Assembly: GCF_003334315.1 (NCBI RefSeq)
Contig: NZ_QOWR01000004.1
Direction: 5' to 3' (one strand)
From: Escherichia coli
GTDB taxonomy: Bacteria; Pseudomonadota; Gammaproteobacteria; Enterobacterales; Enterobacteriaceae
Length of the DNA stretch: 64,000 nt
Within the stretch, counting starts at the first letter, position 1; each line of letters starts with the position of its first letter. Shown one piece after another: positions 39,519 through 58,755 of the stretch. A model generated the notes under the pieces. The model had not been told where the DNA came from and ran no database searches. It saw only the letters and a program-made list of their open reading frames with translations. The translations under genes and the position numbers were made by a program.

Positions 39519-39877
39519 TGGCGGGCATTAATCTCAATAAAAAATTATGGCGTATTCCACAGCAGGGCATGGTCCGCGGCGTCTGCGCCGGGATTGCCAA
39601 CTATTTTGATGTACCGGTAAAACTGGTGCGTATCCTGGTGGTGCTGTCGATTTTCTTCGGTCTGGCGCTGTTTACCCTGGTTGCTTACATCATTTTGTCA
39701 TTTGCGCTTGATCCAATGCCGGACAACATGGCCTTTGGTGAGCAGCTACCTTCCAGCAGCGAATTGCTGGATGAAGTCGACCGTGAACTGGCGGCAAGTG
39801 AAACGCGTTTACGCGAGATGGAACGTTATGTCACTTCCGATACTTTCACGTTACGTAGCCGTTTCCGTCAACTGTGA
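39518..39877 (+). CDS. pspC: Phage shock protein C (119 aa)
   Basis: ORF track; start overlaps pspB stop. Confidence 0.92.
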
Positions 39878-39885
39878 GGAAAGTT

Positions 39886-40107
39886 ATGAATACTCGCTGG
39901 CAACAGGCCGGGCAAAAGGTAAAGCCTGGTTTCAAATTAGCAGGCAAGCTGGTACTTCTTACCGCACTGCGCTATGGCCCGGCGGGTGTGGCGGGCTGGG
40001 CGATAAAATCAGTTGCTCGCCGACCGCTGAAAATGTTGCTGGCTGTGGCGCTGGAACCGCTGTTAAGTCGGGCTGCTAATAAACTGGCACAGCGTTATAA
40101 AAGGTGA
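39886..40107 (+). CDS. pspD: Phage shock protein D (73 aa)
   Basis: ORF track 39874..40107 (GTG); annotated from ATG ([10 protein letters not shown]). Confidence 0.88.
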
Positions 40108-40181
40108 GGGGAGTTTCGCAAAAATTGTTAAATCTCAGGCGTATAATGGATGGCAATTTTCATCCATAGAAGGACGCTTAC

Positions 40182-40496
40182 ATGTTTAAAAAAGGCTTAC
40201 TTGCTCTGGCACTGGTGTTTTCACTGCCCGTTTTCGCCGCTGAACACTGGATCGATGTTCGTGTTCCAGAGCAGTATCAGCAAGAGCACGTTCAGGGGGC
40301 CATCAATATTCCCCTGAAGGAAGTGAAAGAGCGCATTGCCACCGCCGTTCCGGATAAAAACGACACCGTGAAAGTGTATTGCAATGCCGGACGCCAGTCA
40401 GGGCAAGCAAAAGAGATCCTTAGCGAGATGGGATATACCCACGTTGAGAACGCCGGTGGCCTGAAAGACATCGCAATGCCGAAGGTCAAAGGTTAA
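40182..40496 (+). CDS. pspE: Thiosulfate sulfurtransferase PspE (rhodanese), 104 aa
   Basis: ORF track; signal peptide, rhodanese active-site Cys (CNAGRQS). Confidence 0.92.
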   Translation: MFKKGLLALALVFSLPVFAAEHWIDVRVPEQYQQEHVQGAINIPLKEVKERIATAVPDKNDTVKVYCNAGRQSGQAKEILSEMGYTHVENAGGLKDIAMPKVKG

Positions 40497-40510
40497 AAGA
40501 ATTCACCATG

Positions 40511-40538
40511 AGCGGCGCTTATGCGCCGTTTTTTTTTC
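40511..40538 (+). terminator. Intrinsic terminator after pspE
   Basis: Read from sequence: gagcggcgcttatgcgccg followed by a run of 9 T; approximate coordinates. Confidence 0.7.
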
Positions 40539-40708
40539 TGTCACACCTTATTTACATCCCCATAGATTATTTGCGTCAGCTCACAAATACGCTTTTTCCC
40601 TGGTAAAAAATGATTTCCTGCGTGACTAAAACCCTTGTGCTCAATTGACAGTTTATTTTCTGCGGAGTAGTCTCTCGTTTCATGGGACCGCTACCACGGA
40701 AAGGCAAC

Positions 40709-42388
40709 ATGAAACAGAAAATTACGGATTACCTGGACGAAATCTACGGTGGAACATTTACCGCAACTCATTTACAGAAACTTGTAACGCGTCTTGAGAG
40801 TGCGAAACGATTAATTACACAGCGACGTAAAAAACACTGGGATGAAAGTGATGTCGTGTTAATTACCTATGCCGATCAATTTCACAGCAATGATTTAAAA
40901 CCATTACCCACATTTAATCAGTTTTACCATCAATGGCTGCAAAGCATTTTTTCACATGTTCATTTGTTGCCGTTTTATCCATGGTCATCTGATGATGGCT
41001 TTTCGGTAATTGATTATCATCAGGTCGCCAGTGAAGCGGGGGAGTGGCAGGATATTCAGTAACTCGGTGAATGCAGTCATTTAATGTTTGATTTTGTCTG
41101 CAACCATATGTCGGCAAAAAGTGAATGGTTTAAAAACTATTTACAACAGCATCCAGGTTTTGAAGATTTTTTTATTGCCGTTGACCCGCAAACCGATCTC
41201 AGCGCCGTCACTCGCCCGCGTGCGTTACCGTTATTAACGCCATTCCAGATGCGCGATCATTCAACGCGCCATTTATGGACCACCTTTAGTGACGATCAAA
41301 TTGACCTGAATTACCGTAGCCCTGAAGTGTTGCTGGCGATGGTGGATGTTTTACTCTGTTACCTTGCGAAAGGTGCTGAGTATGTCCGCCTGGATGCCGT
41401 TGGCTTTATGTGGAAAGAGCCGGGAACAAGCTGCATCCATCTGGAAAAAACACATCTGATTATCAAACTGTTACGGTCGATTATTGATAACGTTGCGCCA
41501 GGTACAGTGATCATTACCGAGACCAATGTTCCGCATAAAGACAACATTGCTTACTTTGGCGCAGGCGATGACGAAGCACATATGGTGTACCAGTTCTCGC
41601 TGCCGCCACTGGTGCTGCATGCGGTGCAAAAACAGAACGTTGAGGCGCTTTGTGCGTGGGCGCAAAACCTGACACTACCTTCCAGCAACACCACCTGGTT
41701 TAACTTCCTCGCCTCTCACGATGGCATCGGGCTAAACCCGCTACGGGGCTTGTTGCCTGAAAGCGAAATATTAGAGCTGGTCGAGGCGTTACAGCAGGAA
41801 GGTGCATTAGTAAACTGGAAAAATAATCCCGACGGTACACGCAGTCCGTATGAAATAAATGTGACCTATATGGATGCGTTAAGCCGCCGTGAGAGTAGCG
41901 ATGAAGAACGTTGCGCCAGGTTTATCCTTGCCCATGCGATTTTGTTAAGTTTCCCCGGTGTGCCAGCGATATATATTCAAAGTATTCTTGGCTCGCGTAA
42001 TGATTACGCAGGTGTCGAAAAACTCGGATATAACCGTGCGATTAACCGTAAAAAATATCACAGTAAAGAGATAACCCGAGAACTGAACGATGAAGCTACA
42101 TTAAGGCATGCGGTATATCATGAGTTGTCGCGTTTAATTACACTTCGTCGCAGCCATAACGAGTTTCATCCGGATAATAATTTTACCATTGATACGATTA
42201 ATTCATCCGTAATGCGTATTCAAAGAAGTAACGCTGATGGTAATTGTCTGACTGGATTGTTTAATGTCAGTAAAAATATTCAGCATGTAAATATTACTAA
42301 TCTGCATGGTCGGGATCTGATTAGTGAAGTTGATATATTGGGTAATGAAATAACGCTGCGCCCCTGGCAGGTTATGTGGATTAAATAA
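40709..42388 (+). pseudogene. ycjM: GH13 sucrose-phosphorylase-like glucosylglycerate phosphorylase YcjM, interrupted by an in-frame TAA at 41060-41062
   Basis: ORF track gives two same-frame ORFs, 40682..41062 and 41084..42388 (offset 402 nt); 117 aa + stop codon + 7 aa + 434 aa reproduces the expected 559 codons. Confidence 0.8.
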
Positions 42389-42401
42389 AAAGGAACATCT
42401 C

Positions 42402-43694
42402 ATGATTAAATCAAAAATCGTGCTGTTATCAGCACTGGTTTCATGCGCCCTGATTTCAGGCTGTAAAGAAGAAAATAAAACGAATGTATCCATCGAATTT
42501 ATGCATTCTTCGGTGGAGCAGGAGCGCCAGGCCGTTATCAGTAAATTGATTGCCCGTTTTGAAAAAGAAAACCCTGGCATCACCGTTAAGCAAGTGCCCG
42601 TGGAAGAAGATGCCTATAACACTAAAGTCATTACTCTTTCACGTAGCGGTTCGCTGCCGGAAGTGATCGAAACCAGCCATGACTACGCCAAAGTGATGGA
42701 CAAAGAGCAGCTTATCGATCGCAAAGCGGTTGCCACAGTCATCAGCAACGTTGGTGAAGGCGCGTTTTACGATGGCGTACTGCGTATTGTGCGTACCGAA
42801 GATGGTAGCGCATGGACCGGTGTTCCTGTCAGCGCCTGGATTGGCGGTATCTGGTATCGCAAAGATGTGCTGGCAAAAGCGGGGCTTGAGGAGCCGAAAA
42901 ACTGGCAACAGCTGCTGGACGTTGCACAGAAACTGAATGACCCGGCGAATAAAAAATACGGCATTGCGCTGCCTACAGCAGAAAGCGTGTTGACGGAACA
43001 ATCCTTCTCCCAGTTTGCGTTATCCAACCAGGCTAACGTCTTTAACGCCGAAGGCAAAATCACCCTTGATACACCAGAGATGATGCAGGCACTGACCTAT
43101 TACCGCGACCTTGCTGCCAACACTATGCCGGGTTCTAACGACATCATGGAAGTGAAAGACGCCTTTATGAACGGCACCGCGCCGATGGCGATTTACTCCA
43201 CCTATATCCTTCCGGCTGTGATTAAAGAAGGCGACCCGAAAAACGTCGGTTTCGTGGTGCCAACCGAGAAAAACTCTGCGGTCTACGGCATGTTGACCTC
43301 GCTGACCATTACCGCCGGGCAAAAGACCGAAGAGACGGAAGCAGCAGAAAAATTTGTCACCTTTATGGAGCAGGCAGACAACATTGCCGACTGGGTGATG
43401 ATGTCGCCAGGTGCTGCGCTGCCGGTGAATAAAGCGGTGGTGACTACCGCCACCTGGAAAGACAACGACGTTATTAAGGCGCTGGGTGAACTACCGAATC
43501 AGCTAATCGGTGAACTGCCAAATATTCAGGTTTTTGGCGCAGTAGGGGATAAAAACTTTACCCGCATGGGTGATGTGACGGGTTCTGGCGTGGTGAGTTC
43601 AATGGTGCATAACGTCACCGTGGGTAAAGCCGATCTCTCTACTACGCTGCAAGCGAGCCAGAAAAAACTGGATGAACTGATCGAACAGCACTAA
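42402..43694 (+). CDS. ycjN: ABC transporter periplasmic sugar-binding protein YcjN (430 aa)
   Basis: ORF track; lipoprotein-type signal (LISGC). Confidence 0.85.
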   Translation: MIKSKIVLLSALVSCALISGCKEENKTNVSIEFMHSSVEQERQAVISKLIARFEKENPGITVKQVPVEEDAYNTKVITLSRSGSLPEVIETSHDYAKVMDKEQLIDRKAVATVISNVGEGAFYDGVLRIVRTEDGSAWTGVPVSAWIGGIWYRKDVLAKAGLEEPKNWQQLLDVAQKLNDPANKKYGIALPTAESVLTEQSFSQFALSNQANVFNAEGKITLDTPEMMQALTYYRDLAANTMPGSNDIMEVKDAFMNGTAPMAIYSTYILPAVIKEGDPKNVGFVVPTEKNSAVYGMLTSLTITAGQKTEETEAAEKFVTFMEQADNIADWVMMSPGAALPVNKAVVTTATWKDNDVIKALGELPNQLIGELPNIQVFGAVGDKNFTRMGDVTGSGVVSSMVHNVTVGKADLSTTLQASQKKLDELIEQH

Positions 43695-43714
43695 ACCCAG
43701 GACAGGAATCCGCA

Positions 43715-44596
43715 ATGAACAGGCTTTTTTCAGGTCGTTCCGATATGCCCTTTGCGCTGCTGCTTCTCGCGCCCAGCTTATTACTGCTGGGCGGTCTGGT
43801 GGCGTGGCCGATGGTGTCGAATATCGAAATCAGTTTTTTACGTCTGCCGCTCAATCCCAACATCGAGTCAACGTTTGTTGGGGTGAGCAACTATGTGCGT
43901 ATCCTCTCCGATCCCGGCTTCTGGCATTCGCTGTGGATGACGGTCTGGTATACCGCGCTGGTGGTGGCGGGCAGCACCGTGCTCGGGCTGGCGGTGGCGA
44001 TGTTTTTCAACCGCGAGTTCCGCCTGCGCAAAACCGCGCGTTCGCTGGTGATCCTCTCCTACGTAACGCCGTCCATTTCGCTGGTGTTCGCCTGGAAATA
44101 CATGTTCAACAACGGCTACGGCATTGTTAACTACCTCGGCGTCGATCTTCTGCATCTCTATGAGCAGGCACCGCTGTGGTTCGATAATCCGGGCAGTAGC
44201 TTTGTGCTGGTGGTGCTGTTCGCCATCTGGCGCTACTTCCCGTATGCCTTTATCTCGTTTCTGGCGATTTTGCAGACCATCGACAAATCGCTGTACGAAG
44301 CGGCAGAGATGGATGGCGCTAATGCCTGGCAACGGTTTCGTATCGTCACGCTGCCCGCAATTATGCCGGTCCTGGCGACGGTGGTGACACTGCGCACCAT
44401 CTGGATGTTCTACATGTTCGCGGATGTTTATTTGCTGACGACCAAGGTCGATATTCTCGGTGTATATCTCTACAAAACCGCCTTTGCCTTTAATGATTTA
44501 GGAAAAGCGGCGGCGATCTCGGTGGTGCTCTTCATCATTATTTTCGCTGTCATTCTGCTGACCAGGAAACGGGTGAACCTCAATGGCAACAAATAA
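43715..44596 (+). CDS. ycjO: ABC transporter permease YcjO (293 aa)
   Basis: ORF track; MalF/UgpA-like permease. Confidence 0.85.
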   Translation: MNRLFSGRSDMPFALLLLAPSLLLLGGLVAWPMVSNIEISFLRLPLNPNIESTFVGVSNYVRILSDPGFWHSLWMTVWYTALVVAGSTVLGLAVAMFFNREFRLRKTARSLVILSYVTPSISLVFAWKYMFNNGYGIVNYLGVDLLHLYEQAPLWFDNPGSSFVLVVLFAIWRYFPYAFISFLAILQTIDKSLYEAAEMDGANAWQRFRIVTLPAIMPVLATVVTLRTIWMFYMFADVYLLTTKVDILGVYLYKTAFAFNDLGKAAAISVVLFIIIFAVILLTRKRVNLNGNK

Positions 44597-45425
44597 ACGC
44601 ACACTCAGTCGCATCGGTTTTTACTGCGGGCTGGCGCTGTTTCTCATCATCACGCTGTTTCCATTTTTTGTGATGCTGATGACCTCGTTCAAGGGCGCGA
44701 AAGAGGCGATCTCACTGCATCCTACGCTGCTGCCGCAGCAGTGGACGCTGGAGCATTACGTCGACATTTTTAACCCGATGATTTTCCCGTTTGTCGACTA
44801 CTTCCGTAACAGTCTGGTGGTGTCTGTGGTTTCATCCGTGGTGGCGGTATTCCTCGGCATTCTTGGGGCTTACGCGCTTTCCCGCCTGCGCTTTAAAGGT
44901 CGGATGACCATCAACGCCAGCTTTTACACGGTGTATATGTTCTCTGGCATTTTGCTGGTGGTGCCGCTTTTCAAAATCATCACCGCGCTTGGCATTTACG
45001 ACACTGAGATGGCGCTGATCATCACCATGGTGACGCAAACTCTGCCCACCGCCGTGTTTATGCTGAAAAGCTACTTCGACACCATCCCCGATGAGATCGA
45101 AGAAGCGGCGATGATGGATGGCCTCAACCGTCTGCAAATTATCTTCCGCATCACCGTGCCGTTGGCGATGTCCGGGCTGATATCCGTGTTCGTCTACTGC
45201 TTTATGGTGGCGTGGAACGACTATCTGTTTGCGTCGATTTTCCTCTCCAGCGCCAGCAATTTCACCTTACCGGTGGGCCTGAACGCGCTGTTCAGTACGC
45301 CAGATTACATCTGGGGACAGATGATGGCGGCCTCACTGGTGACCGCATTGCCGGTGGTGATTATGTATGCGCTTTCGGAACGTTTTATTAAGAGTGGTTT
45401 GACCGCCGGTGGCGTGAAGGGCTAA
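44583..45425 (+). CDS. ycjP: ABC transporter permease YcjP (280 aa)
   Basis: ORF track; MalG-like permease. Confidence 0.85.
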   Translation: MATNKRTLSRIGFYCGLALFLIITLFPFFVMLMTSFKGAKEAISLHPTLLPQQWTLEHYVDIFNPMIFPFVDYFRNSLVVSVVSSVVAVFLGILGAYALSRLRFKGRMTINASFYTVYMFSGILLVVPLFKIITALGIYDTEMALIITMVTQTLPTAVFMLKSYFDTIPDEIEEAAMMDGLNRLQIIFRITVPLAMSGLISVFVYCFMVAWNDYLFASIFLSSASNFTLPVGLNALFSTPDYIWGQMMAASLVTALPVVIMYALSERFIKSGLTAGGVKG

Positions 45426-45455
45426 AGCGGCCAGTTTCTTTACAAGGAGTTTTAA

Positions 45456-46508
45456 ATGAAAAAGTTAGTAGCCACAGCACCGCGTGTTGCTGCGCTGGTT
45501 GAGTATGAAGATCGGGCGATTTTAGCTAATGAAGTGAAGATCCGCGTGCGTTTCGGCGCACCGAAACACGGAACGGAAGTGGTCGACTTCCGCGCCGCCA
45601 GCCCGTTTATTGATGAAGACTTTAACGGCGAATGGCAGATGTTCACTCCGCGTCCGGCAGATGCGCCGCGCGGCATTGAGTTTGGCAAATTCCAGCTTGG
45701 CAACATGGTGGTTGGCGACATTATCGAGTGCGGCAGCGACGTTACCGACTACGCGGTGGGCGACAGCGTATGCGGCTACGGCCCGCTCTCCGAGACGGTC
45801 ATCATTAACGCAGTGAATAACTACAAGCTGCGCAAAATGCCGCAAGGCAGCTCCTGGAAAAACGCCGTCTGCTACGACCCGGCGCAGTTTGCCATGAGCG
45901 GCGTGCGCGATGCCAACGTGCGCGTAGGGGATTTTGTGGTGGTGGTAGGGCTTGGCGCAATCGGTCAAATTGCCATCCAACTGGCTAAACGCGCTGGCGC
46001 TTCTGTGGTGATTGGCGTCGATCCTATCGCCCATCGCTGTGATATTGCCCGTCGCCACGGCGCGGATTTCTGCCTTAACCCCATCGGCACTGATGTAGGT
46101 AAAGAGATCAAAACGCTGACCGGCAAGCAGGGTGCCGATGTGATTATCGAAACCAGCGGCTACGCCGACGCGCTGCAATCGGCGCTCCGCGGTCTGGCTT
46201 ATGGCGGCACCATCTCCTATGTCGCGTTTGCCAAGCCGTTTGCCGAAGGTTTTAACCTCGGACGCGAAGCGCATTTCAATAACGCCAAAATTGTCTTCTC
46301 TCGCGCGTGCAGCGAACCGAACCCGGATTATCCGCGCTGGAGCCGCAAGCGTATTGAAGAAACCTGTTGGGAACTGCTGATGAACGGTTATCTCAATTGC
46401 GAAGATTTAATCGACCCGGTGGTGACCTTTGCCAATAGCCCGGAAAGCTATATGCAGTATGTCGACCAGCATCCGGAACAGAGCATCAAAATGGGCGTTA
46501 CGTTTTAA
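45456..46508 (+). CDS. ycjQ: Zinc-type alcohol dehydrogenase-like sugar dehydrogenase YcjQ (350 aa)
   Basis: ORF track; MDR family with GLGAIG Rossmann motif. Confidence 0.85.
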   Translation: MKKLVATAPRVAALVEYEDRAILANEVKIRVRFGAPKHGTEVVDFRAASPFIDEDFNGEWQMFTPRPADAPRGIEFGKFQLGNMVVGDIIECGSDVTDYAVGDSVCGYGPLSETVIINAVNNYKLRKMPQGSSWKNAVCYDPAQFAMSGVRDANVRVGDFVVVVGLGAIGQIAIQLAKRAGASVVIGVDPIAHRCDIARRHGADFCLNPIGTDVGKEIKTLTGKQGADVIIETSGYADALQSALRGLAYGGTISYVAFAKPFAEGFNLGREAHFNNAKIVFSRACSEPNPDYPRWSRKRIEETCWELLMNGYLNCEDLIDPVVTFANSPESYMQYVDQHPEQSIKMGVTF

Positions 46509-46526
46509 TTCAAAGGAATGAAAAAA

Positions 46527-47315
46527 ATGAAAATCGGCACACAGAATCAGGCGTTCTTTCCGGAAAACATTCTGGAGAAATTTCGTTATATCAAAGAGAT
46601 GGGCTTCGATGGTTTTGAGATTGACGGCAAACTGCTGGTTAACAACATCGAAGAAGTCAAAGCGGCGATCAAAGAAACCGGTTTACCGGTGACCACCGCC
46701 TGCGGTGGCTATGACGGATGGATTGGCGACTTTATCGAAGAGCGTCGTCTTAATGGCTTAAAGCAGATCGAGCGCATTCTCGAAGCGCTGGCAGAAGTGG
46801 GCGGTAAAGGCATCGTCGTTCCGGCTGCGTGGGGCATGTTTACCTTCCGCTTACCGCCGATGACCTCGCCGCGTAGCCTGGACGGCGACCGCAAAATGGT
46901 GAGTGATTCCCTGCGCGTACTGGAACAGGTCGCCGCGCGTACCGGAACCGTGGTGTATCTCGAACCGTTAAACCGCTATCAGGATCATATGATCAACACC
47001 CTCGCCGATGCCCGCCGTTACATCGTCGAAAACGATCTTAAACATGTACAGATTATCGGCGATTTCTATCACATGAATATCGAAGAAGATAACCTGGCGC
47101 AGGCGCTGCATGACAACCGCGACCTGCTCGGTCATGTGCATATTGCGGATAACCATCGCTACCAGCCGGGCAGCGGCACCCTGGATTTCCACGCGCTGTT
47201 TGAACAGCTGCGCGCGGATAACTATCAGGGCTATGTAGTGTACGAAGGGCGTATCCGGGCGGAAGATCCTGCCCAGGCGTACCGTGATTCGTTGGCCTGG
47301 TTGCGTACCTGCTAA
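46527..47315 (+). CDS. ycjR: Sugar phosphate isomerase/epimerase (xylose-isomerase-like TIM barrel) YcjR, 262 aa
   Basis: ORF track 46518..47315; start moved to MKIGTQNQAF. Confidence 0.85.
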   Translation: MKIGTQNQAFFPENILEKFRYIKEMGFDGFEIDGKLLVNNIEEVKAAIKETGLPVTTACGGYDGWIGDFIEERRLNGLKQIERILEALAEVGGKGIVVPAAWGMFTFRLPPMTSPRSLDGDRKMVSDSLRVLEQVAARTGTVVYLEPLNRYQDHMINTLADARRYIVENDLKHVQIIGDFYHMNIEEDNLAQALHDNRDLLGHVHIADNHRYQPGSGTLDFHALFEQLRADNYQGYVVYEGRIRAEDPAQAYRDSLAWLRTC

Positions 47316-47324
47316 GAGGTCTTT

Positions 47325-48380
47325 GTGAAAAGTGCAATGACAAGCTCTCCGCTGCGGGTCGCGATAATAGGCGCAGGCCAGGTGGCGGATAAGGTTCATG
47401 CTTCGTACTACTGCACCCGCAACGATCTGGAACTGGTGGCTGTCTGTGACAGCCGCCTTTCCCAGGCGCAGGCGCTGGCAGAAAAATACGGGAATGCATC
47501 CGTGTGGGACGATCCGCAGGCCATGCTGCTGGCGGTGAAACCTGATGTGGTTAGCGTCTGCTCACCTAACCGTTTTCATTACGAACATACCCTGATGGCA
47601 CTGGAAGCGGGCTGCCATGTGATGTGCGAAAAACCGCCCGCCATGACGCCAGAACAGGCGCGGGAAATGTGCGATACCGCGCGCAAACTGGGCAAGGTGC
47701 TGGCCTACGACTTTCACCATCGTTTTGCGCTCGATACGCAACAGCTGCGTGAACAGGTGACCAACGGCGTTTTGGGAGAGATTTACGTTACCACCGCCCG
47801 CGCCCTGCGTCGCTGCGGCGTTCCCGGCTGGGGTGTCTTTACCAATAAAGAACTGCAGGGTGGTGGCCCGCTGATCGACATCGGCATTCATATGCTGGAT
47901 GCTGCGATGTATGTGCTGGGCTTTCCGGCGGTGAAAAGCGTGAATGCGCATAGCTTTCAAAAGATCGGCACGCAAAAGAGCTGTGGTCAATTTGGTGAGT
48001 GGGATCCGGCAACTTACAGCGTCGAAGATTCGCTGTTTGGCACCATTGAATTTCATAACGGCGGCATTCTGTGGCTGGAAACGTCATTTGCACTCAACAT
48101 CCGCGAACAGTCGATTATGAACGTCAGCTTTTGTGGTGATAAAGCTGGTGCGACGCTGTTTCCAGCACATATCTACACCGATAACAACGGTGAATTAATG
48201 ACGCTGATGCAACGGGAAATGGCAGACGACAACCGCCATTTGCGCAGCATGGAAGCCTTTATCAATCACGTACAGGGCAAGCCCGTGATGATAGCCGACG
48301 CCGAGCAGGGGTACATCATCCAGCAACTGGTGGCGGCGTTGTATCAATCCGCAGAAACAGGGACGCGTGTGGAATTATGA
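47325..48380 (+). CDS. ycjS: Gfo/Idh/MocA-family NAD-dependent oxidoreductase YcjS (351 aa)
   Basis: ORF track; N-terminal VAIIGAGQVA Rossmann motif. Confidence 0.85.
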   Translation: MKSAMTSSPLRVAIIGAGQVADKVHASYYCTRNDLELVAVCDSRLSQAQALAEKYGNASVWDDPQAMLLAVKPDVVSVCSPNRFHYEHTLMALEAGCHVMCEKPPAMTPEQAREMCDTARKLGKVLAYDFHHRFALDTQQLREQVTNGVLGEIYVTTARALRRCGVPGWGVFTNKELQGGGPLIDIGIHMLDAAMYVLGFPAVKSVNAHSFQKIGTQKSCGQFGEWDPATYSVEDSLFGTIEFHNGGILWLETSFALNIREQSIMNVSFCGDKAGATLFPAHIYTDNNGELMTLMQREMADDNRHLRSMEAFINHVQGKPVMIADAEQGYIIQQLVAALYQSAETGTRVEL

Positions 48381-50644
48381 CCAGGCCAGTAACGTTATCA
48401 GAACCCCATTTCAGCCAGCATACCCTGAACAAGTATGCATCGCTGATGGCGCAGGGGAACGGCTATCTTGGGCTTCGCGCCAGCCATGAAGAAGATTACA
48501 CGCGCCAGACGCGAGGGATGTATCTGGCGGGGCTGTATCATCGGGCGGGAAAAGGTGAAATCAACGAACTGGTGAACCTGCCTGATGTCGTGGGGATGGA
48601 GATTGCCATAAATGGTGAGGTTTTCTCGTTATCCCACGAAGCCTGGCAGCGTGAGCTTGACTTTGCCAGTGGCGAATTACGCCGCAATGTTGTCTGGCGT
48701 ACCAGCAACGGCTCAGGTTACACCATCGCCAGCCGTCGCTTTGTTTCGGCAGACCAACTGCCGCTCATTGCGCTGGAAATCACTATTACGCCACTGGACG
48801 CCGACGCGTCAGTGCTGATTTCAACAGGCATTGACGCCACGCAAACCAATCACGGTCGCCAACATCTCGACGAAACCCAGGTGCGGGTGTTTGGTCAGCA
48901 TCTGATGCAGGGGAGCTACACCACCCAGGATGGACGCAGTGATGTGGCCATCAGCTGTTGCTGTAAGGTGAGCGGTGATGTGCAGCAATGCTATACCGCC
49001 AAAGAGCGCCGTTTACTGCAACATACCAGTGCGCAGCTTCATGCAGGCGAGACAATGACGTTGCAAAAACTGGTGTGGATCGACTGGCGGGATGACAGGC
49101 AAGCTGCTTTAGACGAGTGGGGCAGCGCGTCGCTTCGCCAGCTTGAAATGTGCGCGCAGCAGAGTTACGACCAACTTCTTGCAGCATCAACAGAAAACTG
49201 GCGTCAATGGTGGCAGAAACGTCGTATCACGGTAAATGGCGGCGAAGCGCACGATCAGCAAGCGTTAGATTATGCGCTTTATCATCTGCGCATCATGACG
49301 CCTGCCCACGACGAGCGCAGCAGCATTGCGGCAAAAGGCTTAACCGGCGAAGGCTACAAAGGCCACGTTTTCTGGGATACAGAAGTATTTTTGTTACCGT
49401 TTCATCTGTTTAGCGATCCGACGGTTGCCCGAAGTTTACTGCGTTATCGCTGGCACAACTTGCCAGGCGCGCAGGAGAAAGCGCGACGCAACGGCTGGCA
49501 GGGCGCGCTATTTCCGTGGGAAAGCGCGCGCAGCGGCGAAGAAGAGACGCCGGAATTTGCCGCCATTAACATTCGCACCGGGCTGCGGCAAAAAGTGGCC
49601 TCGGCGCAGGCGGAACATCATCTGGTGGCCGATATCGCCTGGGCGGTTATTCAATACTGGCAGACCACGGGGGATGAAAGTTTCATTGCGCATGAAGGCA
49701 TGGCGCTACTTCTGGAGACGGCAAAGTTCTGGATTAGCCGCGCGGTGAGAGTTAACGATCGTCTGGAAATTCATGATGTTATTGGGCCAGACGAATATAC
49801 CGAACATGTCAATAATAATGCATACACCAGCTATATGGCCCGCTACAACGTTCAACAGGCGCTGAATATTGCCCGCCAGTTCGGCTGTAGCGACGATGCG
49901 TTTATCCATCGCGCCGAAATGTTCCTCAAAGAGCTATGGATGCCAGAAATTCAGCCCGACGGCGTTTTGCCGCAGGATGATTCGTTTATGGCTAAGCCGG
50001 CGATTAATCTGGCGAAATACAAAGCGGCGGCGGGGAAGCAAACCATACTGCTGGATTATTCACGCGCAGAAGTGAACGAGATGCAGATCCTCAAACAAGC
50101 TGATGTGGTGATGCTCAATTACATGCTGCCGGAGCAGTTCTCAGCGGCATCGTGTCTTGCCAATCTGCAATTTTATGAACCGCGCACTATTCACGACTCG
50201 TCATTAAGTAAAGCAATCCACGGCATTGTTGCCGCACGCTGTGGCCTGCTGACCCAAAGTTATCAGTTCTGGCGCGAGGGGACTGAAATCGATCTTGGTG
50301 CTGATCCGCATAGTTGTGATGATGGTATCCATGCTGCCGCAACTGGCGCTATCTGGCTGGGGGCGATTCAGGGTTTTGCCGGGGTGAGCGTGCGTGACGG
50401 TGAATTGCATCTCAATCCGGCGTTACCTGAGCAGTGGCAACAGTTGTCTTTCCCTCTGTTCTGGCAGGGCTGCGAATTACAGGTCACTCTTGACGCGCAG
50501 CGTATTGCGATTCGAACTTCTGCGCCCGTTTCACTGCGTTTGAACGGTCAGCTTATAACCGTGGCTGAAGAATCTGTTTTCTGTTTGGGTGATTTTATTT
50601 TGCCCTTCAATGGGACCGCTACCAAACATCAGGAGGATGAATGA
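48377..50644 (+). CDS. ycjT: GH65 kojibiose phosphorylase YcjT (755 aa)
   Basis: ORF track; GH65 family, overlaps ycjS/ycjU by 4 nt. Confidence 0.88.
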
Positions 50645-51300
50645 AACTGCAAGGGGTAATTTTCGATCTGGATGGTGTAATCACCGATACCGCGCATCTG
50701 CATTTCCAGGCGTGGCAGCAGATTGCCGCTGAAATTGGCATCAGCATTGATGCGCAGTTTAACGAATCCCTAAAAGGGATCAGCCGCGATGAGTCTCTGC
50801 GGCGCATTCTGCAACACGGGGGCAAAGAGGGCGACTTTAACTCGCAGGAGAGGGCGCAACTGGCGTATCGCAAAAATCTGCTCTATGTCCACTCACTACG
50901 CGAGTTGACGGTCAACGCTGTTCTACCCGGCATTCGCTCTTTGCTGGCAGATCTCCGTGCACAGCAGATCTCGGTTGGGCTGGCTTCTGTCTCCCTGAAT
51001 GCGCCGACGATTTTAGCGGCGCTGGAGCTGCGCGAGTTTTTCACCTTCTGCGCGGATGCTTCCCAACTTAAAAACTCGAAACCGGACCCGGAAATCTTTC
51101 TCGCCGCCTGTGCAGGGCTGGGCGTGCCGCCGCAGGCATGTATCGGCATTGAAGATGCGCAGGCGGGCATTGACGCCATTAACGCCAGCGGTATGCGCTC
51201 GGTGGGGATCGGCGCGGGCTTAACCGGGGCGCAATTACTGTTGCCTTCAACGGAATCACTCACCTGGCCGCGGTTATCGGCCTTCTGGCAAAACGTATAG
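50641..51300 (+). CDS. ycjU: Beta-phosphoglucomutase YcjU (HAD superfamily), 219 aa
   Basis: ORF track; HAD motif [10 protein letters not shown]. Confidence 0.9.
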
Positions 51301-51313
51301 CAAAGGAATCAAC

Positions 51314-52396
51314 ATGGCTCAGCTTTCGTTACAACATATTCAAAAAATCTACGATAACCAGGTGCATGTGGTGAAGGACTTCAACCTGGAAATTGCCGAT
51401 AAAGAGTTCATCGTGTTTGTCGGCCCGTCGGGCTGCGGTAAGTCGACCACCCTGCGCATGATTGCCGGGCTTGAGGAGATCAGCGGCGGCGATCTGTTGA
51501 TCGACGGCAAACGAATGAATGACGTTCCAGCCAAAGCACGCAATATAGCGATGGTGTTCCAGAACTACGCGTTGTATCCGCATATGACGGTTTACGACAA
51601 CATGGCGTTTGGTCTGAAGATGCAAAAAATCGCCAAAGAGGTGATTGATGAGCGGGTGAACTGGGCGGCGCAAATTCTCGGCCTGCGTGAGTACCTGAAA
51701 CGTAAGCCGGGGGCGCTTTCCGGCGGGCAACGTCAGCGAGTGGCGCTTGGGCGGGCGATTGTACGCGAAGCGGGCGTGTTTTTAATGGATGAACCGCTCT
51801 CTAACCTTGATGCCAAGCTGCGCGTGCAAATGCGCGCAGAGATCAGCAAGCTGCATCAGAAACTGAACACCACCATGATCTACGTGACCCACGATCAGAC
51901 CGAAGCGATGACCATGGCGACGCGGATTGTGATTATGAAAGACGGGATTGTTCAGCAAGTAGGTGCGCCGAAAACCGTTTATAACCAACCCGCGAATATG
52001 TTTGTTTCCGGATTTATTGGATCACCAGCGATGAATTTTATTCGCGGCACGATCGATGGCGATAAATTCGTTACGGAAACGCTTAAATTAACCATTCCCG
52101 AAGAGAAATTAGCGGTTCTGAAAACACAGGAAAGTTTGCATAAGCCCATCGTGATGGGAATACGACCGGAAGATATTCATCCGGACGCGCAAGAGGAAAA
52201 TAACATTTCCGCCAAAATTAGCGTGGCAGAATTAACCGGTGCGGAATTTATGCTCTACACCACGGTTGGGGGGCACGAGTTAGTGGTCCGTGCTGGTGCG
52301 TTAAATGATTATCATGCAGGAGAAAATATCACTATTCATTTTGATATGACGAAATGTCATTTCTTTGATGCAGAAACGGAAATAGCAATTCGCTAA
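51314..52396 (+). CDS. ycjV: MalK-like ABC transporter ATP-binding protein YcjV, intact 360 aa
   Basis: ORF track; Walker A GPSGCGKST, signature LSGGQRQRV. Confidence 0.88.
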   Translation: MAQLSLQHIQKIYDNQVHVVKDFNLEIADKEFIVFVGPSGCGKSTTLRMIAGLEEISGGDLLIDGKRMNDVPAKARNIAMVFQNYALYPHMTVYDNMAFGLKMQKIAKEVIDERVNWAAQILGLREYLKRKPGALSGGQRQRVALGRAIVREAGVFLMDEPLSNLDAKLRVQMRAEISKLHQKLNTTMIYVTHDQTEAMTMATRIVIMKDGIVQQVGAPKTVYNQPANMFVSGFIGSPAMNFIRGTIDGDKFVTETLKLTIPEEKLAVLKTQESLHKPIVMGIRPEDIHPDAQEENNISAKISVAELTGAEFMLYTTVGGHELVVRAGALNDYHAGENITIHFDMTKCHFFDAETEIAIR

Positions 52397-52440
52397 ATAC
52401 AGGGGGAAGGCATTCCCCCAGGATAATACAAGGAACAATA

Positions 52441-53346
52441 ATGAAAAAGTTATTACCCTGTACCGCACTGGTGATGTGTGCGGGAATGGCCTGCGCACAG
52501 GCCGAGGAAAGGAACGACTGGCACTTTAATATCGGCGCGATGTACGAAATAGAAAACGTCGAGGGTTATGGCGAAGATATGGATGGGCTGGCGGAGCCTT
52601 CAGTCTATTTTAATGCCGCCAACGGGCCGTGGAGAATTGCTCTGGCCTATTATCAGGAAGGGCCGGTAGATTATAGCGCGGGTAAACGTGGAACGTGGTT
52701 TGATCGCCCGGAGCTGGAGGTGCATTATCAGTTCCTCGAAAACGATGATTTCAGTTTCGGCCTGACCGGCGGTTTCCGTAATTATGGTTATCACTACGTT
52801 GATGAACCGGGTAAAGACACGGCGAATATGCAGCGCTGGAAAATCGCGCCAGACTGGGATGTGAAACTGACTGACGATTTACGTTTCAACGGTTGGTTGT
52901 CGATGTATAAATTTGCCAACGATCTGAACACTACCGGTTACGCTGATACCCGTGTCGAAACGGAAACAGGTCTGCAATATACCTTCAACGAAACGGTTGC
53001 CTTGCGAGTGAACTATTATCTCGAGCGCGGCTTCAATATGGACGACAGCCGCAATAACGGTGAGTTTTCCACGCAAGAAATTCGCGCCTATTTGCCGCTG
53101 ACGCTCGGCAACCACTCGGTGACGCCGTATACGCGCATTGGGCTGGATCGCTGGAGTAACTGGGACTGGCAGGATGATATTGAACGTGAAGGCCATGATT
53201 TTAACCGTGTAGGTTTATTTTACGGTTATGATTTCCAGAACGGACTTTCCGTTTCGCTGGAATACGCGTTTGAGTGGCAGGATCACGACGAAGGCGACAG
53301 TGATAAATTCCATTATGCAGGTGTCGGCGTAAATTACTCGTTCTGA
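52441..53346 (+). CDS. ompG: Outer membrane porin OmpG (301 aa)
   Basis: ORF track; signal peptide, beta-barrel with C-terminal aromatic residue. Confidence 0.92.
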   Translation: MKKLLPCTALVMCAGMACAQAEERNDWHFNIGAMYEIENVEGYGEDMDGLAEPSVYFNAANGPWRIALAYYQEGPVDYSAGKRGTWFDRPELEVHYQFLENDDFSFGLTGGFRNYGYHYVDEPGKDTANMQRWKIAPDWDVKLTDDLRFNGWLSMYKFANDLNTTGYADTRVETETGLQYTFNETVALRVNYYLERGFNMDDSRNNGEFSTQEIRAYLPLTLGNHSVTPYTRIGLDRWSNWDWQDDIEREGHDFNRVGLFYGYDFQNGLSVSLEYAFEWQDHDEGDSDKFHYAGVGVNYSF

Positions 53347-53359
53347 TAATGGGCTAAAT

Positions 53360-53440
53360 TGCCGGATGCGGCGCGAGTACTTTATCCGATCTATAAATGT
53401 AGGCCGGATAAGATGCGCTAGCATCGCATCTGGCATTCAG
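53360..53440. repeat. BIME / REP elements between ompG and ycjW
   Basis: Read from sequence: gccggatgcggcgcgag ... taggccggataagatgcgctagcatcgcatctggca; approximate coordinates. Confidence 0.65.
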
Positions 53441-53456
53441 GCAAGGTAGCTGGTAT

Positions 53457-54455
53457 TTATTTCAGCGTCATATGCGTGGCAACGGTAATATTCTGTGGTG
53501 ACGGTTTTCCAGAAATTAAGCGGAATAATAACTCGCAGCTTTGTTGACCTAACTCCTGCGTCGGAACATCGATGCCGCCCGGTGCAGGCGTTAAAATAAA
53601 TGACAGCGTTTCATTGCTATAACCCACCACCGCTAACTGCTGCGGAATAGCAATATTTTTCTCTGCTGCCGCACGATAAATGCTCATTAATTTCAGGCTG
53701 TCAGTGGCAAACACCGCCTCAGGCAACGGTGACTGGCTTAATAATTGCCGTGCTGCTTTTAATGCAGTTTCATGGGTATAACCGCCATCAACAATCCATT
53801 CATCACGCACTGCAATATTATGCGCAGCCAGGCTCTGCTTATAACCATTAACGCGATCAACCGAAACATGGACATCAAGCGGAGCATGCAGGCAGGCAAT
53901 ATTTTGATGCCCACTTTCAATTAATGCATCGGTCAACGCAATGCTGTCGCCAAAATTATCGGTATCGACAGAATAAACATGGGCATATTGACCTTCAACT
54001 TTGCCAATCACCACCACCGGAATATCATATTTATCGAGTTGGGCAAAAAATGACTCATCCGCTGGCGAACTGAGCATAATAATGCCTTTAATCATTTTCT
54101 GCTTAATTTTGCTTTCGCATTTTTGCAGATCTTCTGCCGGATTGTGCGACGTTTGTAATATCACGTCGAAACCTTCTTCTTCAGCTTTGGCGGTGATGGC
54201 ATGCAAAACTTCAGAGAAAAACGGATTACCCGCCGTAGTTTTGGTCGAACGGGTAGAAATCACCATAATGGCATCAAAACCCGAAGAGGTCAGCGCGCGG
54301 GCCAGCTTGTTTGGCTGATACTGTAATTCTTCAATGGCCCGTAACACTTTTTCGCGCGCTTCCGGGGAGATATTAGTTTGCTTATTCAGCACGCGTGATA
54401 CGGTGGATTTTGATACGCCTGCAACCCTGGCAATATCATAAATAGTAGGGGACAT
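53457..54455 (-). CDS. ycjW: LacI-family transcriptional regulator YcjW (332 aa)
   Basis: ORF track; N-terminal HTH ([24 protein letters not shown]). Confidence 0.9.
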
Positions 54456-54610
54456 AGGTCAGGAACTCCGTCCGAACGTGAATGCTGCACATCTTATGGA
54501 GTTCGCCGGTCGATGACAACACGGGCAGTTGATAATCAATGGCCTGGCCCCCACATTCATATCCTTACGAATGATTTTTTTTCTGGTCTTCAGAGCAGCA
54601 CAGGACAGCA

Positions 54611-56008
54611 ATGAAGCGACTTAAAAATGAACTCAATGCGCTGGTGAATCGGGGTGTCGACAGACATCTGCGCCTCGCTGTAACCGGACTTAGCCGCAGC
54701 GGCAAAACAGCGTTTATCACCGCGATGGTTAATCAGTTGCTTAATATTCACGCCGGAGCACGTTTGCCGCTGTTAAGTGCGGTGCGTGAAGAGCGCCTGC
54801 TGGGCGTGAAACGCATTCCCCAGCGTGACTTTGGCATTCCGCGCTTCACCTATGACGAAGGGCTGGCGCAGTTATATGGCGATCCACCCGCCTGGCCAAC
54901 GCCAACGCGCGGCGTCAGTGAAATCCGCCTGGCGCTACGTTTTAAATCGAATGATTCGCTGCTACGCCACTTTAAGGATACCTCCACGCTGTATCTGGAA
55001 ATTGTGGATTATCCCGGCGAATGGTTGCTCGACCTGCCGATGCTGGCGCAGGACTATTTAAGCTGGTCGCGCCAGATGACGGGCTTACTCAATGGTCAGC
55101 GCGGAGAATGGTCGGCGAAATGGCGAATGATGAGCGAAGGGCTGGACCCGCTAGCGCCTGCCGACGAAAACCGGCTGGCGGACATTGCCGCCGCGTGGAC
55201 CGATTATCTCCACCACTGTAAAGAGCAGGGGCTGCACTTTATTCAGCCTGGGCGCTTTGTCTTGCCGGGAGATATGGCAGGTGCGCCCGCGCTGCAATTC
55301 TTCCCGTGGCCGGATGTCGATACCTGGGGCGAGTCCAAACTGGCGCAGGCCGATAAGCATACCAATGCCGGAATGCTGCGCGAGCGCTTTAATTATTACT
55401 GCGAGAAGGTGGTGAAGGGGTTCTATAAGAATCATTTTCTGCGCTTTGACCGCCAGATTGTGCTGGTGGATTGCCTGCAACCTCTCAACAGTGGGCCACA
55501 GGCATTTAATGATATGCGTCTGGCACTGACGCAGCTGATGCAAAGTTTTCACTACGGGCAGCGTACCCTGTTCCGGCGTTTGTTTTCGCCGGTTATCGAT
55601 AAGCTATTGTTTGCTGCCACTAAAGCGGACCATGTGACCATCGATCAGCACGCTAATATGGTTTCATTACTGCAACAACTGATTCAGGATGCCTGGCAAA
55701 ATGCGGCGTTCGAAGGGATCAGCATGGACTGCCTGGGGCTGGCGTCAGTTCAGGCGACCACCAGCGGCATTATTGATGTTAACGGTGAGAAAATCCCGGC
55801 GCTGCGTGGTAATCGACTTAGCGATGGCGCACCGCTCACTGTTTATCCTGGCGAAGTTCCCGCACGTTTGCCTGGTCAGGCGTTCTGGGATAAGCAAGGC
55901 TTCCAGTTTGAGGCATTTCGTCCGCAGGTGATGGATGTCGACAAACCACTACCGCATATTCGTCTTGATGCTGCGCTGGAATTTTTAATAGGAGATAAAT
56001 TGCGATGA
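54611..56008 (+). CDS. ycjX: Uncharacterised P-loop NTPase YcjX (DUF463), 465 aa
   Basis: ORF track; Walker A GLSRSGKT. Confidence 0.85.
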
Positions 56009-57066
56009 CCGAACCGTTAAAACCACGTATTGATTTCGACGGTCCTCTGGAGGTCGATCAGAATCCTAAATTCAGGGCGCAGCAGACCTTTGACGAAAAT
56101 CAGGCGCAAAATTTTGCCCCGGCCACGCTCGACGAAGCGCAGGAAGAAGAGGGGCAAGTCGAAGCGGTAATGGACGCAGCGTTACGTCCGAAACGCAGCC
56201 TGTGGCGCAAAATGGTGATGGGAGGGCTGGCTCTGTTTGGCGCAAGCGTTGTCGGGCAGGGTGTACAGTGGACAATGAATGCCTGGCAAACCCAGGACTG
56301 GGTGGCGCTGGGTGGATGTGCCGCTGGGGCATTGATTATCGGCGCTGGCGTAGGTTCTGTGGTAACAGAGTGGCGGCGCTTATGGCGCTTGCGACAGCGC
56401 GCCCATGAACGCGACGAAGCGCGTGATTTATTGCATAGCCACGGCACGGGCAAAGGCCGCGCATTTTGCGAAAAACTGGCGCAGCAGGCGGGTATTGATC
56501 AGTCGCATCCGGCGCTGCAACGCTGGTATGCCTCAATCCATGAAACGCAAAACGACCGTGAAGTGGTCAGCCTGTATGCGCATTTGGTCCAGCCAGTTTT
56601 AGATGCCCAGGCGCGGCGCGAAATCAGCCGTTCGGCGGCGGAATCAACGTTGATGATTGCGGTCAGCCCGCTGGCGTTGGTCGATATGGCGTTTATCGCC
56701 TGGCGCAATCTGCGTTTAATTAATCGCATCGCCACGCTGTATGGCATTGAACTGGGGTATTACAGCCGTTTGCGTCTGTTTAAGCTGGTATTGCTGAATA
56801 TCGCTTTTGCCGGAGCCAGCGAACTGGTGCGCGAAGTGGGGATGGACTGGATGTCGCAAGATCTCGCTGCTCGTTTGTCTACCCGCGCAGCTCAGGGGAT
56901 TGGTGCAGGACTTCTGACGGCACGACTCGGGATTAAAGCTATGGAGCTTTGCCGCCCGCTGCCGTGGATTGACGATGACAAACCTCGCCTCGGGGATTTC
57001 CGTCGTCAGCTTATCGGTCAGGTGAAAGAAACGCTGCAAAAAGGCAAAACGCCCAGCGAAAAATAA
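56005..57066 (+). CDS. ycjF: Uncharacterised inner-membrane protein YcjF (DUF697/UPF0283), 353 aa
   Basis: ORF track; translationally coupled to ycjX (4-nt overlap). Confidence 0.85.
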
Positions 57067-57142: not shown

Positions 57143-57213
57143 AGAAACCTTCCTGCTATCCAAATAGTGTCATATCATCATATTAATTGTTCTTTTTTCA
57201 GGTGAAGGTTCCC

Positions 57214-58755
57214 ATGCGTCTGGAAGTCTTTTGTGAAGACCGACTCGGTCTGACCCGCGAATTACTCGATCTACTCGTGCTAAGAGGCATTGATTTACGC
57301 GGTATTGAGATTGATCCCATTGGGCGAATCTACCTCAATTTTGCTGAACTGGAGTTTGAGAGTTTCAGCAGTCTGATGGCCGAAATACGCCGTATTGCGG
57401 GTGTTACCGATGTGCGTACTGTCCCGTGGATGCCTTCCGAACGTGAGCATCTGGCGTTGAGCGCGTTACTGGAGGCGTTGCCTGAACCTGTGCTCTCTGT
57501 CGATATGAAAAGCAAAGTGGATATGGCGAACCCGGCGAGCTGTCAGCTTTTTGGGCAAAAATTGGATCGCCTGCGCAACCATACCGCCGCACAATTGATT
57601 AACGGCTTTAATTTTTTACGTTGGCTGGAAAGCGAACCGCAAGATTCGCATAACGAGCATGTCGTTATTAATGGGCAGAATTTCCTGATGGAGATTACGC
57701 CTGTTTATCTTCAGGATGAAAATGATCAACACGTCCTGACCGGTGCGGTGGTGATGTTGCGATCAACGATTCGTATGGGCCGCCAGTTGCAAAATGTCGC
57801 CGCCCAGGACGTCAGCGCCTTCAGTCAAATTGTCGCCGTCAGCCCGAAAATGAAGCATGTTGTCGAACAGGCGCAGAAACTGGCGATGCTAAGCGCGCCG
57901 CTGCTGATTACGGGTGACACAGGTACAGGTAAAGATCTCTTTGCCTACGCCTGCCATCAGGCAAGCCCCAGAGCGGGCAAACCTTACCTGGCGCTGAACT
58001 GTGCGTCTATACCGGAAGATGCGGTCGAGAGTGAACTGTTTGGTCATGCTCCGGAAGGGAAGAAAGGATTCTTTGAGCAGGCGAACGGTGGTTCGGTGCT
58101 GTTGGATGAAATAGGGGAAATGTCACCACGGATGCAGGCGAAATTACTGCGTTTCCTTAATGATGGCACTTTCCGTCGGGTTGGCGAAGACCATGAGGTG
58201 CATGTCGATGTGCGGGTGATTTGCGCTACGCAGAAGAATCTGGTCGAACTGGTGCAAAAAGGCATGTTCCGTGAAGATCTCTATTATCGTCTGAACGTGT
58301 TGACGCTCAATCTGCCGCCGCTACGTGACTGTCCGCAGGACATCATGCCGTTAACTGAGCTGTTCGTCGCCCGCTTTGCCGACGAGCAGGGCGTGCCGCG
58401 TCCGAAACTGGCCGCTGACCTGAATACTGTACTTACGCGTTATGCGTGGCCGGGAAATGTGCGGCAGTTAAAGAACGCTATCTATCGCGCACTGACACAA
58501 CTGGACGGTTATGAGCTGCGTCCACAGGATATTTTGTTGCCGGATTATGACGCCGCAACGGTAGCCGTGGGCGAAGATGCGATGGAAGGTTCGCTGGACG
58601 AAATCACCAGCCGTTTTGAACGCTCGGTATTAACCCAGCTTTATCGCAATTATCCCAGCACGCGCAAACTGGCAAAACGTCTCGGCGTTTCACATACCGC
58701 GATTGCCAATAAGTTGCGGGAATATGGTCTGAGTCAGAAGAAGAACGAAGAGTAA
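57214..58755 (+). CDS. tyrR: Transcriptional regulator TyrR (ACT-PAS-AAA+-HTH), 513 aa
   Basis: ORF track 57187..58755; start moved to MRLEVFCEDRLGLTREL. Confidence 0.95.
   Translation: MRLEVFCEDRLGLTRELLDLLVLRGIDLRGIEIDPIGRIYLNFAELEFESFSSLMAEIRRIAGVTDVRTVPWMPSEREHLALSALLEALPEPVLSVDMKSKVDMANPASCQLFGQKLDRLRNHTAAQLINGFNFLRWLESEPQDSHNEHVVINGQNFLMEITPVYLQDENDQHVLTGAVVMLRSTIRMGRQLQNVAAQDVSAFSQIVAVSPKMKHVVEQAQKLAMLSAPLLITGDTGTGKDLFAYACHQASPRAGKPYLALNCASIPEDAVESELFGHAPEGKKGFFEQANGGSVLLDEIGEMSPRMQAKLLRFLNDGTFRRVGEDHEVHVDVRVICATQKNLVELVQKGMFREDLYYRLNVLTLNLPPLRDCPQDIMPLTELFVARFADEQGVPRPKLAADLNTVLTRYAWPGNVRQLKNAIYRALTQLDGYELRPQDILLPDYDAATVAVGEDAMEGSLDEITSRFERSVLTQLYRNYPSTRKLAKRLGVSHTAIANKLREYGLSQKKNEE

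Follow-up and report, generated by a model that had tools for sequence, protein, structure and literature searches.

[quoted passage not shown]

We analysed a 64-kb stretch of E. coli DNA, referred to here as the window. The region described below is the ycjX-ycjF operon (ycjXF), which consists of two overlapping open reading frames on the plus strand:

54611-56008, plus strand: ycjX coding sequence, 465 aa, for a soluble Ras-like GTP-binding protein (Pfam DUF463)
56005-57066, plus strand: ycjF coding sequence, 353 aa, for a predicted inner-membrane protein (DUF697/TIGR01620)
56005-56008, plus strand: ATGA overlap of the ycjX stop and the ycjF start, 4 nt common to both genes
53460-54455, minus strand: ycjW, the divergent gene on the flank before ycjX (annotation, window map)
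about 57214-58755, plus strand: tyrR, the downstream neighbour (annotation, window map)

The initial annotation had given exactly these coordinates and lengths for the two reading frames and had noted their 4-nt overlap, which is the ATGA; it had also placed the pair between ycjW and tyrR, as both the annotation and the window map confirm. Its family assignments were borne out as well. YcjX, which it had identified as a DUF463 protein with the Walker A motif GLSRSGKT, matches Pfam PF04317 (DUF463) at E=7.6e-181 over residues 20-464 and model positions 1-443 of 443, with the motif at residues 26-33. YcjF, which it had assigned to DUF697, matches PF05128 (DUF697; UPF0283) at E=1.2e-55 over residues 183-341 (nt 56551-57027), and scores 432.8 bits against NCBIfam TIGR01620, for which the cut-off is 160. 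Because the two Pfam E-values are this low, the reading frames do not reflect chance. Many E. coli chromosomes match the 2.9-kb region with 100% identity, and of 5426 complete E. coli genomes 5417 contain the pair: ycjXF is a near-universal core gene pair of E. coli, and its locus is ordinary. The earlier view of the pair as conserved and not novel was thus correct, and all the essentials are in print, namely the gene pair, the GTPase fold, the sigma-32 promoter and the linkage to psp. What we add is incremental: a codon bias at an embedded Shine-Dalgarno sequence, an island that appears to split ycjXF from psp, and two alternative regulatory set-ups.

YcjX carries three motifs of the GTPase fold:

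54686-54709, plus strand: G1/Walker A motif GLSRSGKT, YcjX residues 26-33 (sequence)
55007-55021, plus strand: G3/Walker B motif DYPGE, with DYPG at residues 133-136 (sequence)
55619-55630, plus strand: G4 motif TKAD, residues 337-340, the guanine-specificity motif

We assessed conservation in an alignment of 111 representatives of the family, which comprises 1735 clusters at 50% identity. Among these representatives, G31 and K32 of G1 are invariant, as are D133, Y134, P135, E137 and W138 of G3 (G136 is nearly so), and G4 has an invariant D340 and a nearly invariant K338. T99 is also nearly invariant in the alignment, which makes it a candidate switch-I threonine. E. coli YcjX has the fold of the solved YcjX structure, and a sequence scan detected no hydrophobic segment in it. 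Full-length relatives among the best 150 representatives are all stand-alone proteins of 440-526 aa. We conclude that YcjX belongs to the Ras-like (TRAFAC-class) GTP-binding proteins, as a soluble, divergent member in which the G1, G3 (DxxGE) and G4 (TKxD) motifs are conserved.

The PDB contains orthologue structures of YcjX from Shewanella, which belongs to another bacterial order (6NZ4, 6NZ5 and 6NZ6, with 6NZ4 titled YcjX-GDP). From the motifs and the GDP-bound orthologue in 6NZ4, we infer that E. coli YcjX binds and hydrolyses GTP. The Shewanella study of Tsai et al. (2019) reportedly gives the fold and the nucleotide-bound states, and not the cellular role. This structure paper is cited in PMC7680126 and PMC11237479. 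The initial annotation had described YcjX as a P-loop NTPase of unknown mechanism; the P-loop is present, but the conserved residues are, more specifically, those of a guanine-nucleotide switch. Likewise, its description of the pair as mechanistically uncharacterised still holds for the physiological role, but not for YcjX, a GTP-binding protein with a crystallised orthologue.

YcjF begins with an acidic, poorly conserved tail of low pLDDT (residues 1-65), followed by two hydrophobic helices (approximately residues 70-92 and 100-122; nt 56212-56370) joined by a 7-residue loop. The helix pair is flanked by RPKRSLWRK on one side and by a ten-residue stretch on the other, so that positive charge lies on both sides; sequence and model fit a hairpin whose two ends are cytoplasmic. 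A helical linker of moderate conservation makes up the middle part. Column conservation then rises to a mean of 0.74 over residues 200-320, compared with 0.40-0.54 elsewhere, and the DUF697 core contains the invariant residues S221, P222, D227, R234, Y246, G270, E273, S292, R294, Q297, G298, G302, R307, G309, R317 and P318. The AF2 monomer model is all-alpha with a pLDDT of 80.8, and further hydrophobic peaks at residues 213-235 and 263-285 lie within the predicted DUF697 region. We conclude that YcjF is a predicted inner-membrane protein with a two-helix hydrophobic hairpin and an all-helical DUF697 domain.

Searches with YcjF returned close orthologues only among the matches listed. A profile search of PDB sequences gave no structural relative, the best 50 Foldseek matches of the model in AFDB50 were all TIGR01620 orthologues, and the fold search yielded generic helical matches only. 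DUF697 domains reportedly occur fused to GTPase domains in other proteins, according to the Pfam description of the family. Among the best 150 YcjX representatives, we found neither a YcjX-YcjF nor a DUF697-GTPase fusion.

Several features of YcjF bear on whether it might be a channel or transporter gated by a separate G protein, YcjX, in a split analogue of the FeoB type that would tune ion flux or proton-motive force under stress. Invariant charged residues lie in DUF697 helices that are hydrophobic or amphipathic (D227, R234, E273, R294, R307 and R317), several YcjF helices are rich in glycine, and Psp is tied to damage that can compromise the integrity of the inner membrane (PMC5596341), all of which would suit such a role. 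An ASKA ycjF clone also passed an Ala-Ala export screen, but in the first round only, and was lost in later rounds (PMC10299036). Moreover, YcjF has no significant similarity to transporter or channel families in Pfam or the PDB, and the loop between the two DUF697 hydrophobic peaks (residues 236-262) has a net charge of +4, which argues against a periplasmic location. We consider a gated channel quite unlikely.

The initial annotation had proposed gene-neighbourhood and co-occurrence analysis as a check on the pair, and we carried this out in 80 gammaproteobacterial genomes in which YcjX is 45-99% identical. A YcjF homologue lies directly downstream of ycjX in 73 of the 80. The 4-nt overlap, as ATGA or GTGA, is present at 59 of the 73 adjacent loci as called, and at about 64 once over-extended starts are corrected; it spans Enterobacterales, Vibrionales, Alteromonadales and Oceanospirillales. 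In three more distant YcjX relatives (32-34% identity), the gene that follows likewise encodes a DUF697 protein; the two genes overlap by 4 nt or by 1 nt, or are 2 nt apart, and the 4-nt overlap is that of a relative of 32% identity. Azospirillum likewise has a ycjX-ycjF pair. The exceptions are some Pasteurellaceae, whose ycjF is displaced or found at a different genomic location; H. paraphrohaemolyticus nevertheless retains a TIGR01620 protein.

The ribosome-binding site of ycjF lies within the end of ycjX:

55990-55994, plus strand: ycjF Shine-Dalgarno sequence AGGAG, inside ycjX codons Gly461-Asp462 (GGA GAT), 10 nt before the ATG

We found that the codon at the Gly461 position is GGA at 56 of the 70 loci that keep the glycine, whereas GGA accounts for 13.3% of all glycine codons in the same genes. 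The neighbouring synonymous positions, in Leu, Asp and Lys codons, vary freely. Loci without the ATGA overlap mostly have GGC, GGG or GGT at this glycine, and one (L054) has GGA. Because the sequences are phylogenetically related, the raw GGA counts overstate independence; the bias nevertheless covers four orders. This codon bias speaks for selection that keeps a ribosome-binding site within ycjX and couples the translation of ycjX and ycjF, and the ATGA overlap together with the embedded Shine-Dalgarno sequence would provide coupled, co-ordinated synthesis of the two proteins. The genes are co-inherited and co-transcribed, and they are probably co-translated.

This arrangement speaks to a further alternative, namely that YcjX is a cytosolic stress GTPase acting, as other heat-induced bacterial GTPases do, on soluble targets, such as ribosomes or the clients of chaperones and proteases, and that YcjF is co-transcribed with it but has an unrelated role. 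The adjacency, the 4-nt overlap and the embedded Shine-Dalgarno sequence are all still seen at 32% identity, which would be difficult to account for if YcjX and YcjF had no function in common. In addition, the matches of YcjX to translational GTPases are limited to the G domain, and the recurrent neighbours of ycjXF are membrane-stress genes (psp), not ribosomal genes. A purely cytosolic YcjX is, in our assessment, unlikely.

Upstream of ycjX, we identified the following promoter and leader:

54529-54556, plus strand: sigma-32-type promoter, with the -35 element TTGATA at 54529-54534, a 14-nt spacer and the -10 element CCCCACAT at 54549-54556
54557-54610, plus strand: ycjX 5' leader, with the Shine-Dalgarno sequence AGGA at 54602-54605

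The 3' end of the promoter is 54 nt before the ycjX ATG, within an intergenic region of 155 nt. We scanned the window for the sigma-32 consensus TTGAAA-N13-15-CCCCATNT. The ycjX promoter, TTGATA-N14-CCCCACAT, has two mismatches to TTGAAA-N14-CCCCATNT and is the sole match with at most two mismatches in the 64-kb window; this single match compares with 2.07 expected per window by chance and is not significant alone. Because the motif itself is at chance level, the sigma-32 assignment rests on position, conservation and the literature. With respect to conservation, Citrobacter, Enterobacter, Pluralibacter and related genera have a motif in the corresponding place (CCCCATGT, CCCCATCT and similar; 45-53 nt upstream of the ATG), regardless of which gene precedes ycjX. 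In several Halomonas, a similar motif is nearer the ycjX start, at 32-39 nt. With respect to the literature, PMC3041696, citing Nonaka 2006, reports a sigma-32 promoter for ycjX, and PMC7572479 places both ycjX and ycjF among the genes that respond early to heat. Both genes are also up at the RNA and protein levels during lysis induced by phiX174 (PMC8125068). Given the motif and these reports, we conclude that in E. coli and its close relatives ycjXF is transcribed from a sigma-32-type heat-shock promoter.

Within the leader, A54567 (NC_000913.3:1384073, context UCAUAUCCUUACGAAUGAUUU) is a reported low-level TadA A-to-I editing site, 'ycjX-5p', edited at 3-15% (PMC13170351 supplement). Folding of the leader gave no stable local hairpin and nothing better than shuffled sequences, and there were no Rfam matches in or around the operon. 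Terminator-like hits within ycjX and ycjF were at chance level only, and we found no terminator-like site between ycjF and tyrR; RegulonDB lists a ycjX-ycjF-tyrR transcription unit (PMC3041696).

The window also contains the psp genes, which are separated from ycjX by a set of sugar-catabolism genes:

37431-38405: pspF (window map)
38572-40496, plus strand: pspABCDE operon, to the end of pspE including its stop codon (window map, annotation)
40709-54455: ycjM-ycjW/ompG sugar-catabolism island between pspE and ycjX, with genes ycjM to ycjV, ompG and ycjW

The distance from pspE to ycjX here is 14.1 kb, with the divergent ycjW in between, so that ycjXF is physically outside the psp operon. In the same neighbourhood analysis, 50 of the 80 genomes had a psp gene as the direct, same-strand upstream neighbour of ycjX (pspD in 25, pspC in 23 and pspE in 2), and in Yersinia, Rahnella, Serratia and Pantoea only 7 nt separate this neighbour from ycjX. 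The order pspFABCDE-ycjXF-tyrR, without the island, is seen in E. albertii, which is the sister species of E. coli. The island occurs in only four other sampled genomes (n=80); in Citrobacter it lies between pspD and pspE, and not after pspE (locus L022 and a plasmid copy). tyrR is downstream of ycjF at 56 of 74 loci, at a distance of less than 600 bp in 36. The adjacency of psp and ycjX in 50 of the 80 genomes, together with the gene order in E. albertii, indicates that the E. coli layout arose by a lineage-specific insertion of approximately 14 kb into an ancestral psp-ycjXF-tyrR block. On this comparison of gene orders, the sugar-catabolism island appears to have been inserted between pspE and ycjX, splitting ycjXF from the psp operon. 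Beyond psp and tyrR, we found no consistent neighbour theme in Vibrio, Halomonas or Pasteurellaceae.

The linkage agrees with published work. Y. enterocolitica has a pspABCD-ycjXF operon (PMC3467454), ycjX extends 32 of 81 psp operons (PMC3041696), and psp-ycjX linkage is also described in PMC9239133 and PMC11237479. In E. coli, psp and ycjXF use different sigma factors, that of ycjXF being sigma-32 (PMC3041696). Together, these data reveal two regulatory set-ups for ycjXF: it is either the tail of a psp operon or a unit with its own sigma-32 promoter.

The linkage does not make ycjXF a core part of the Psp response. In Y. enterocolitica, only the non-polar deletions that affected PspF, A, B or C had robust phenotypes (PMC3467454), and DUF463 is present in 14% of Psp-null genomes (PMC9239133); these two observations, as well as the separate sigma factors in E. 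coli, argue against a core Psp role. The pairing of the genes, the hydrophobic YcjF helices with their flanking positive charge, the all-alpha model of YcjF, the ATGA overlap with its GGA bias, the sigma-32 promoter and heat induction, and the linkage to psp all count in favour of a stress-induced, membrane-anchored GTPase switch that is accessory to inner-membrane stress responses, a reading to which we assign a probability of about 55%. In such a switch, YcjF would use DUF697 to hold YcjX at the inner membrane, on the cytoplasmic side, and the same domain may serve to regulate YcjX. The GTP- or GDP-bound state of YcjX would switch an activity that aids the homeostasis of the inner membrane or its proteins under heat or envelope stress, and the contribution of ycjXF would be accessory to the Psp response, not a core part of it. 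Two further observations count against the membrane-anchored switch: ycjX and ycjF are unlinked in some Pasteurellaceae, and the fold search with YcjF found only generic matches.

A more specific version would make ycjXF a nucleotide-driven accessory of membrane repair by PspA, the bacterial ESCRT-III-like protein. The pair would then be a split GTPase, anchored in the membrane, with the task of sensing or remodelling inner membrane that has been damaged, or of recycling assemblies of Psp; its genes would have started out in the psp operon and come under sigma-32 control later, in the lineage of E. coli. We regard a role this closely bound to PspA as improbable. Whatever its details, a defined role for ycjXF would connect the cytoplasmic stress response (sigma-32) with that of the envelope (Psp), and two widespread domains, DUF463 and DUF697, would gain a function. 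Few genes of the E. coli heat-shock regulon still lack a known function; ycjXF is among them, and it is also the commonest non-Psp passenger of psp operons.

Our preferred reading, the membrane-anchored switch, can be set beside several known GTPase systems. YcjX shares only 10-19% identity with Arf/Arl/Sar1, SR-beta and Rag. Unlike these small membrane-recruited GTPases, it is 465 aa long, with large insertions and a C-terminal beta-rich region, and it has neither an amphipathic N-terminal helix nor a lipid anchor. YcjX is not known to have a GEF or GAP. We also considered the dynamin-like proteins (DynA, LeoA, IniA and Campylobacter DLP1/2), whose large dynamin-type G domain, stalk and paddle are combined in one polypeptide; YcjX does not have this arrangement.

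The DO-GTPase/GAP1 systems (Kaur, Burroughs, Iyer and Aravind 2020, PMC7159879) resemble ycjXF in more respects. Their GTPases, like YcjX, are of the TRAFAC class and have a conserved Glu that follows the Gly of Walker B (DYPGE in YcjX), are often membrane-associated, and have a conserved non-enzymatic partner encoded downstream (PMC7159879). One alternative reading of ycjXF is a DO-GTPase-type system for biological conflict or for defence against phages: the psp-linked GTPase has been called a member of the DO-GTPase family (PMC11237479), Pfam DO-GTPase2 matches 1 of the 111 YcjX representatives at E<=1e-3 and 23 of the 111 at E<=0.1, and ycjX and ycjF are induced in the phiX174 infection noted above. 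However, E. coli YcjX has no match to the Pfam DO-GTPase1 or DO-GTPase2 models, neither YcjX nor YcjF has a PADLOC match at E<=0.1, and we found no PHROGs match and no copy in phage genomes. The DO-GTPase architecture comprises paired paralogous GTPases, GAP1 and variable effectors, whereas ycjXF encodes just one GTPase, without a paralogue to pair with it, and neither GAP1 nor variable effectors are encoded nearby. Its partner is a DUF697 protein, its neighbours are conserved housekeeping genes, and its distribution is not patchy: nearly all complete E. coli genomes, as counted above, have it as a core gene pair, and its locus is fixed. We judge a conflict system highly improbable.

The pspABCD-ycjXF operon of Yersinia enterocolitica contains the orthologous pair with the same ATGA overlap (at the two Yersinia loci L023 and L076), and the window likewise includes a psp operon. 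The two arrangements differ in how ycjXF is placed and expressed: ycjX starts 7 nt after pspD in Yersinia (L023), whereas in E. coli it lies 14.1 kb from pspE and has a sigma-32-type promoter of its own.

The interval between pspE and ycjX in the window (40497-54610) is occupied by a 14-kb ycjM-ycjV/ompG/ycjW sugar-catabolism cluster. In E. albertii (locus L004, 7878-8000), 123 bp lie between pspE and the downstream ycjX; judged from this sequence comparison, the cluster is an insertion in the window relative to E. albertii. In a Citrobacter locus (L022), the same island is placed before pspE, whereas in the window it follows pspE, and this difference in placement suggests that the insertion points within the psp-ycjXF block are independent or shifted. 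The island includes the following gene:

51314-52396, + strand: ycjV, ABC-transporter ATPase gene, an intact 360-aa ORF in the window.

In strain ER1709, whose ycjXF is identical to that of the window, ycjV is annotated as frameshifted; the window thus derives from another lineage than ER1709.

On the proximal side of the pair, one site in the ycjX leader has been described previously:

54567, + strand: A in the ycjX 5' leader, in UACG context, UCAUAUCCUUACGAAUGAUUU.

According to the supplement of PMC13170351, this position ('ycjX-5p') is a TadA-dependent A-to-I editing site that is 3-15% edited. Folding of the local sequence formed no stable tRNA-Arg2-like hairpin around A54567. On the distal side, the longest tyrR ORF in the window begins at TTG 57187, as called mechanically, whereas annotation and homology place the start at ATG 57214; the mechanical call is therefore 9 codons too long (57187-57213).

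We found that ycjF is not the next gene after ycjX in several Pasteurellaceae, namely the Haemophilus loci L056, L057, L060 and L067, together with L054 and L062. In L056, ycjX is followed by a convergent 879-aa ORF, read by eye as a putative ppc, while in L054 and L062 ycjF lies 1-2 kb downstream of ycjX. A TIGR01620 protein is still encoded elsewhere in H. paraphrohaemolyticus. In these Pasteurellaceae loci, where ycjX lacks an adjoining ycjF, the pair has been uncoupled naturally, which is rare.

The pair also occurs beyond the Gammaproteobacteria. On a replicon of the alphaproteobacterium Azospirillum thermophilum (L003, 5962-9139), ycjX and ycjF overlap by 14 nt, and the gene directly after the pair encodes an Hsp20 small heat-shock protein, a further heat-stress association outside that class. 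A Logan contig (DRR337551; L086, 3665-7626) encodes a DUF463-DUF697 pair that is 34% identical, and the adjoining gene product matches the mitochondrial carrier family (Mito_carr); this match is odd for a bacterial contig, and may mean that the organism is eukaryote-associated or that the assembly is chimeric.

Finally, a ycjXF-bearing, Citrobacter-like chromosomal block is present on L002 (NZ_AP025896.1, 200489-219883), which about 55 Enterobacter hormaechei plasmids resemble. The carriers of this block are conjugative IncHI2A megaplasmids of ~310-380 kb, and the block itself spans at least 19 kb, from ycjQ-like to ompG, ycjW, pspE, ycjX, ycjF, tyrR, tpx, ycjG, mpaA and mppA. The plasmid-encoded YcjX shares 95.5% identity with the E. 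coli protein.
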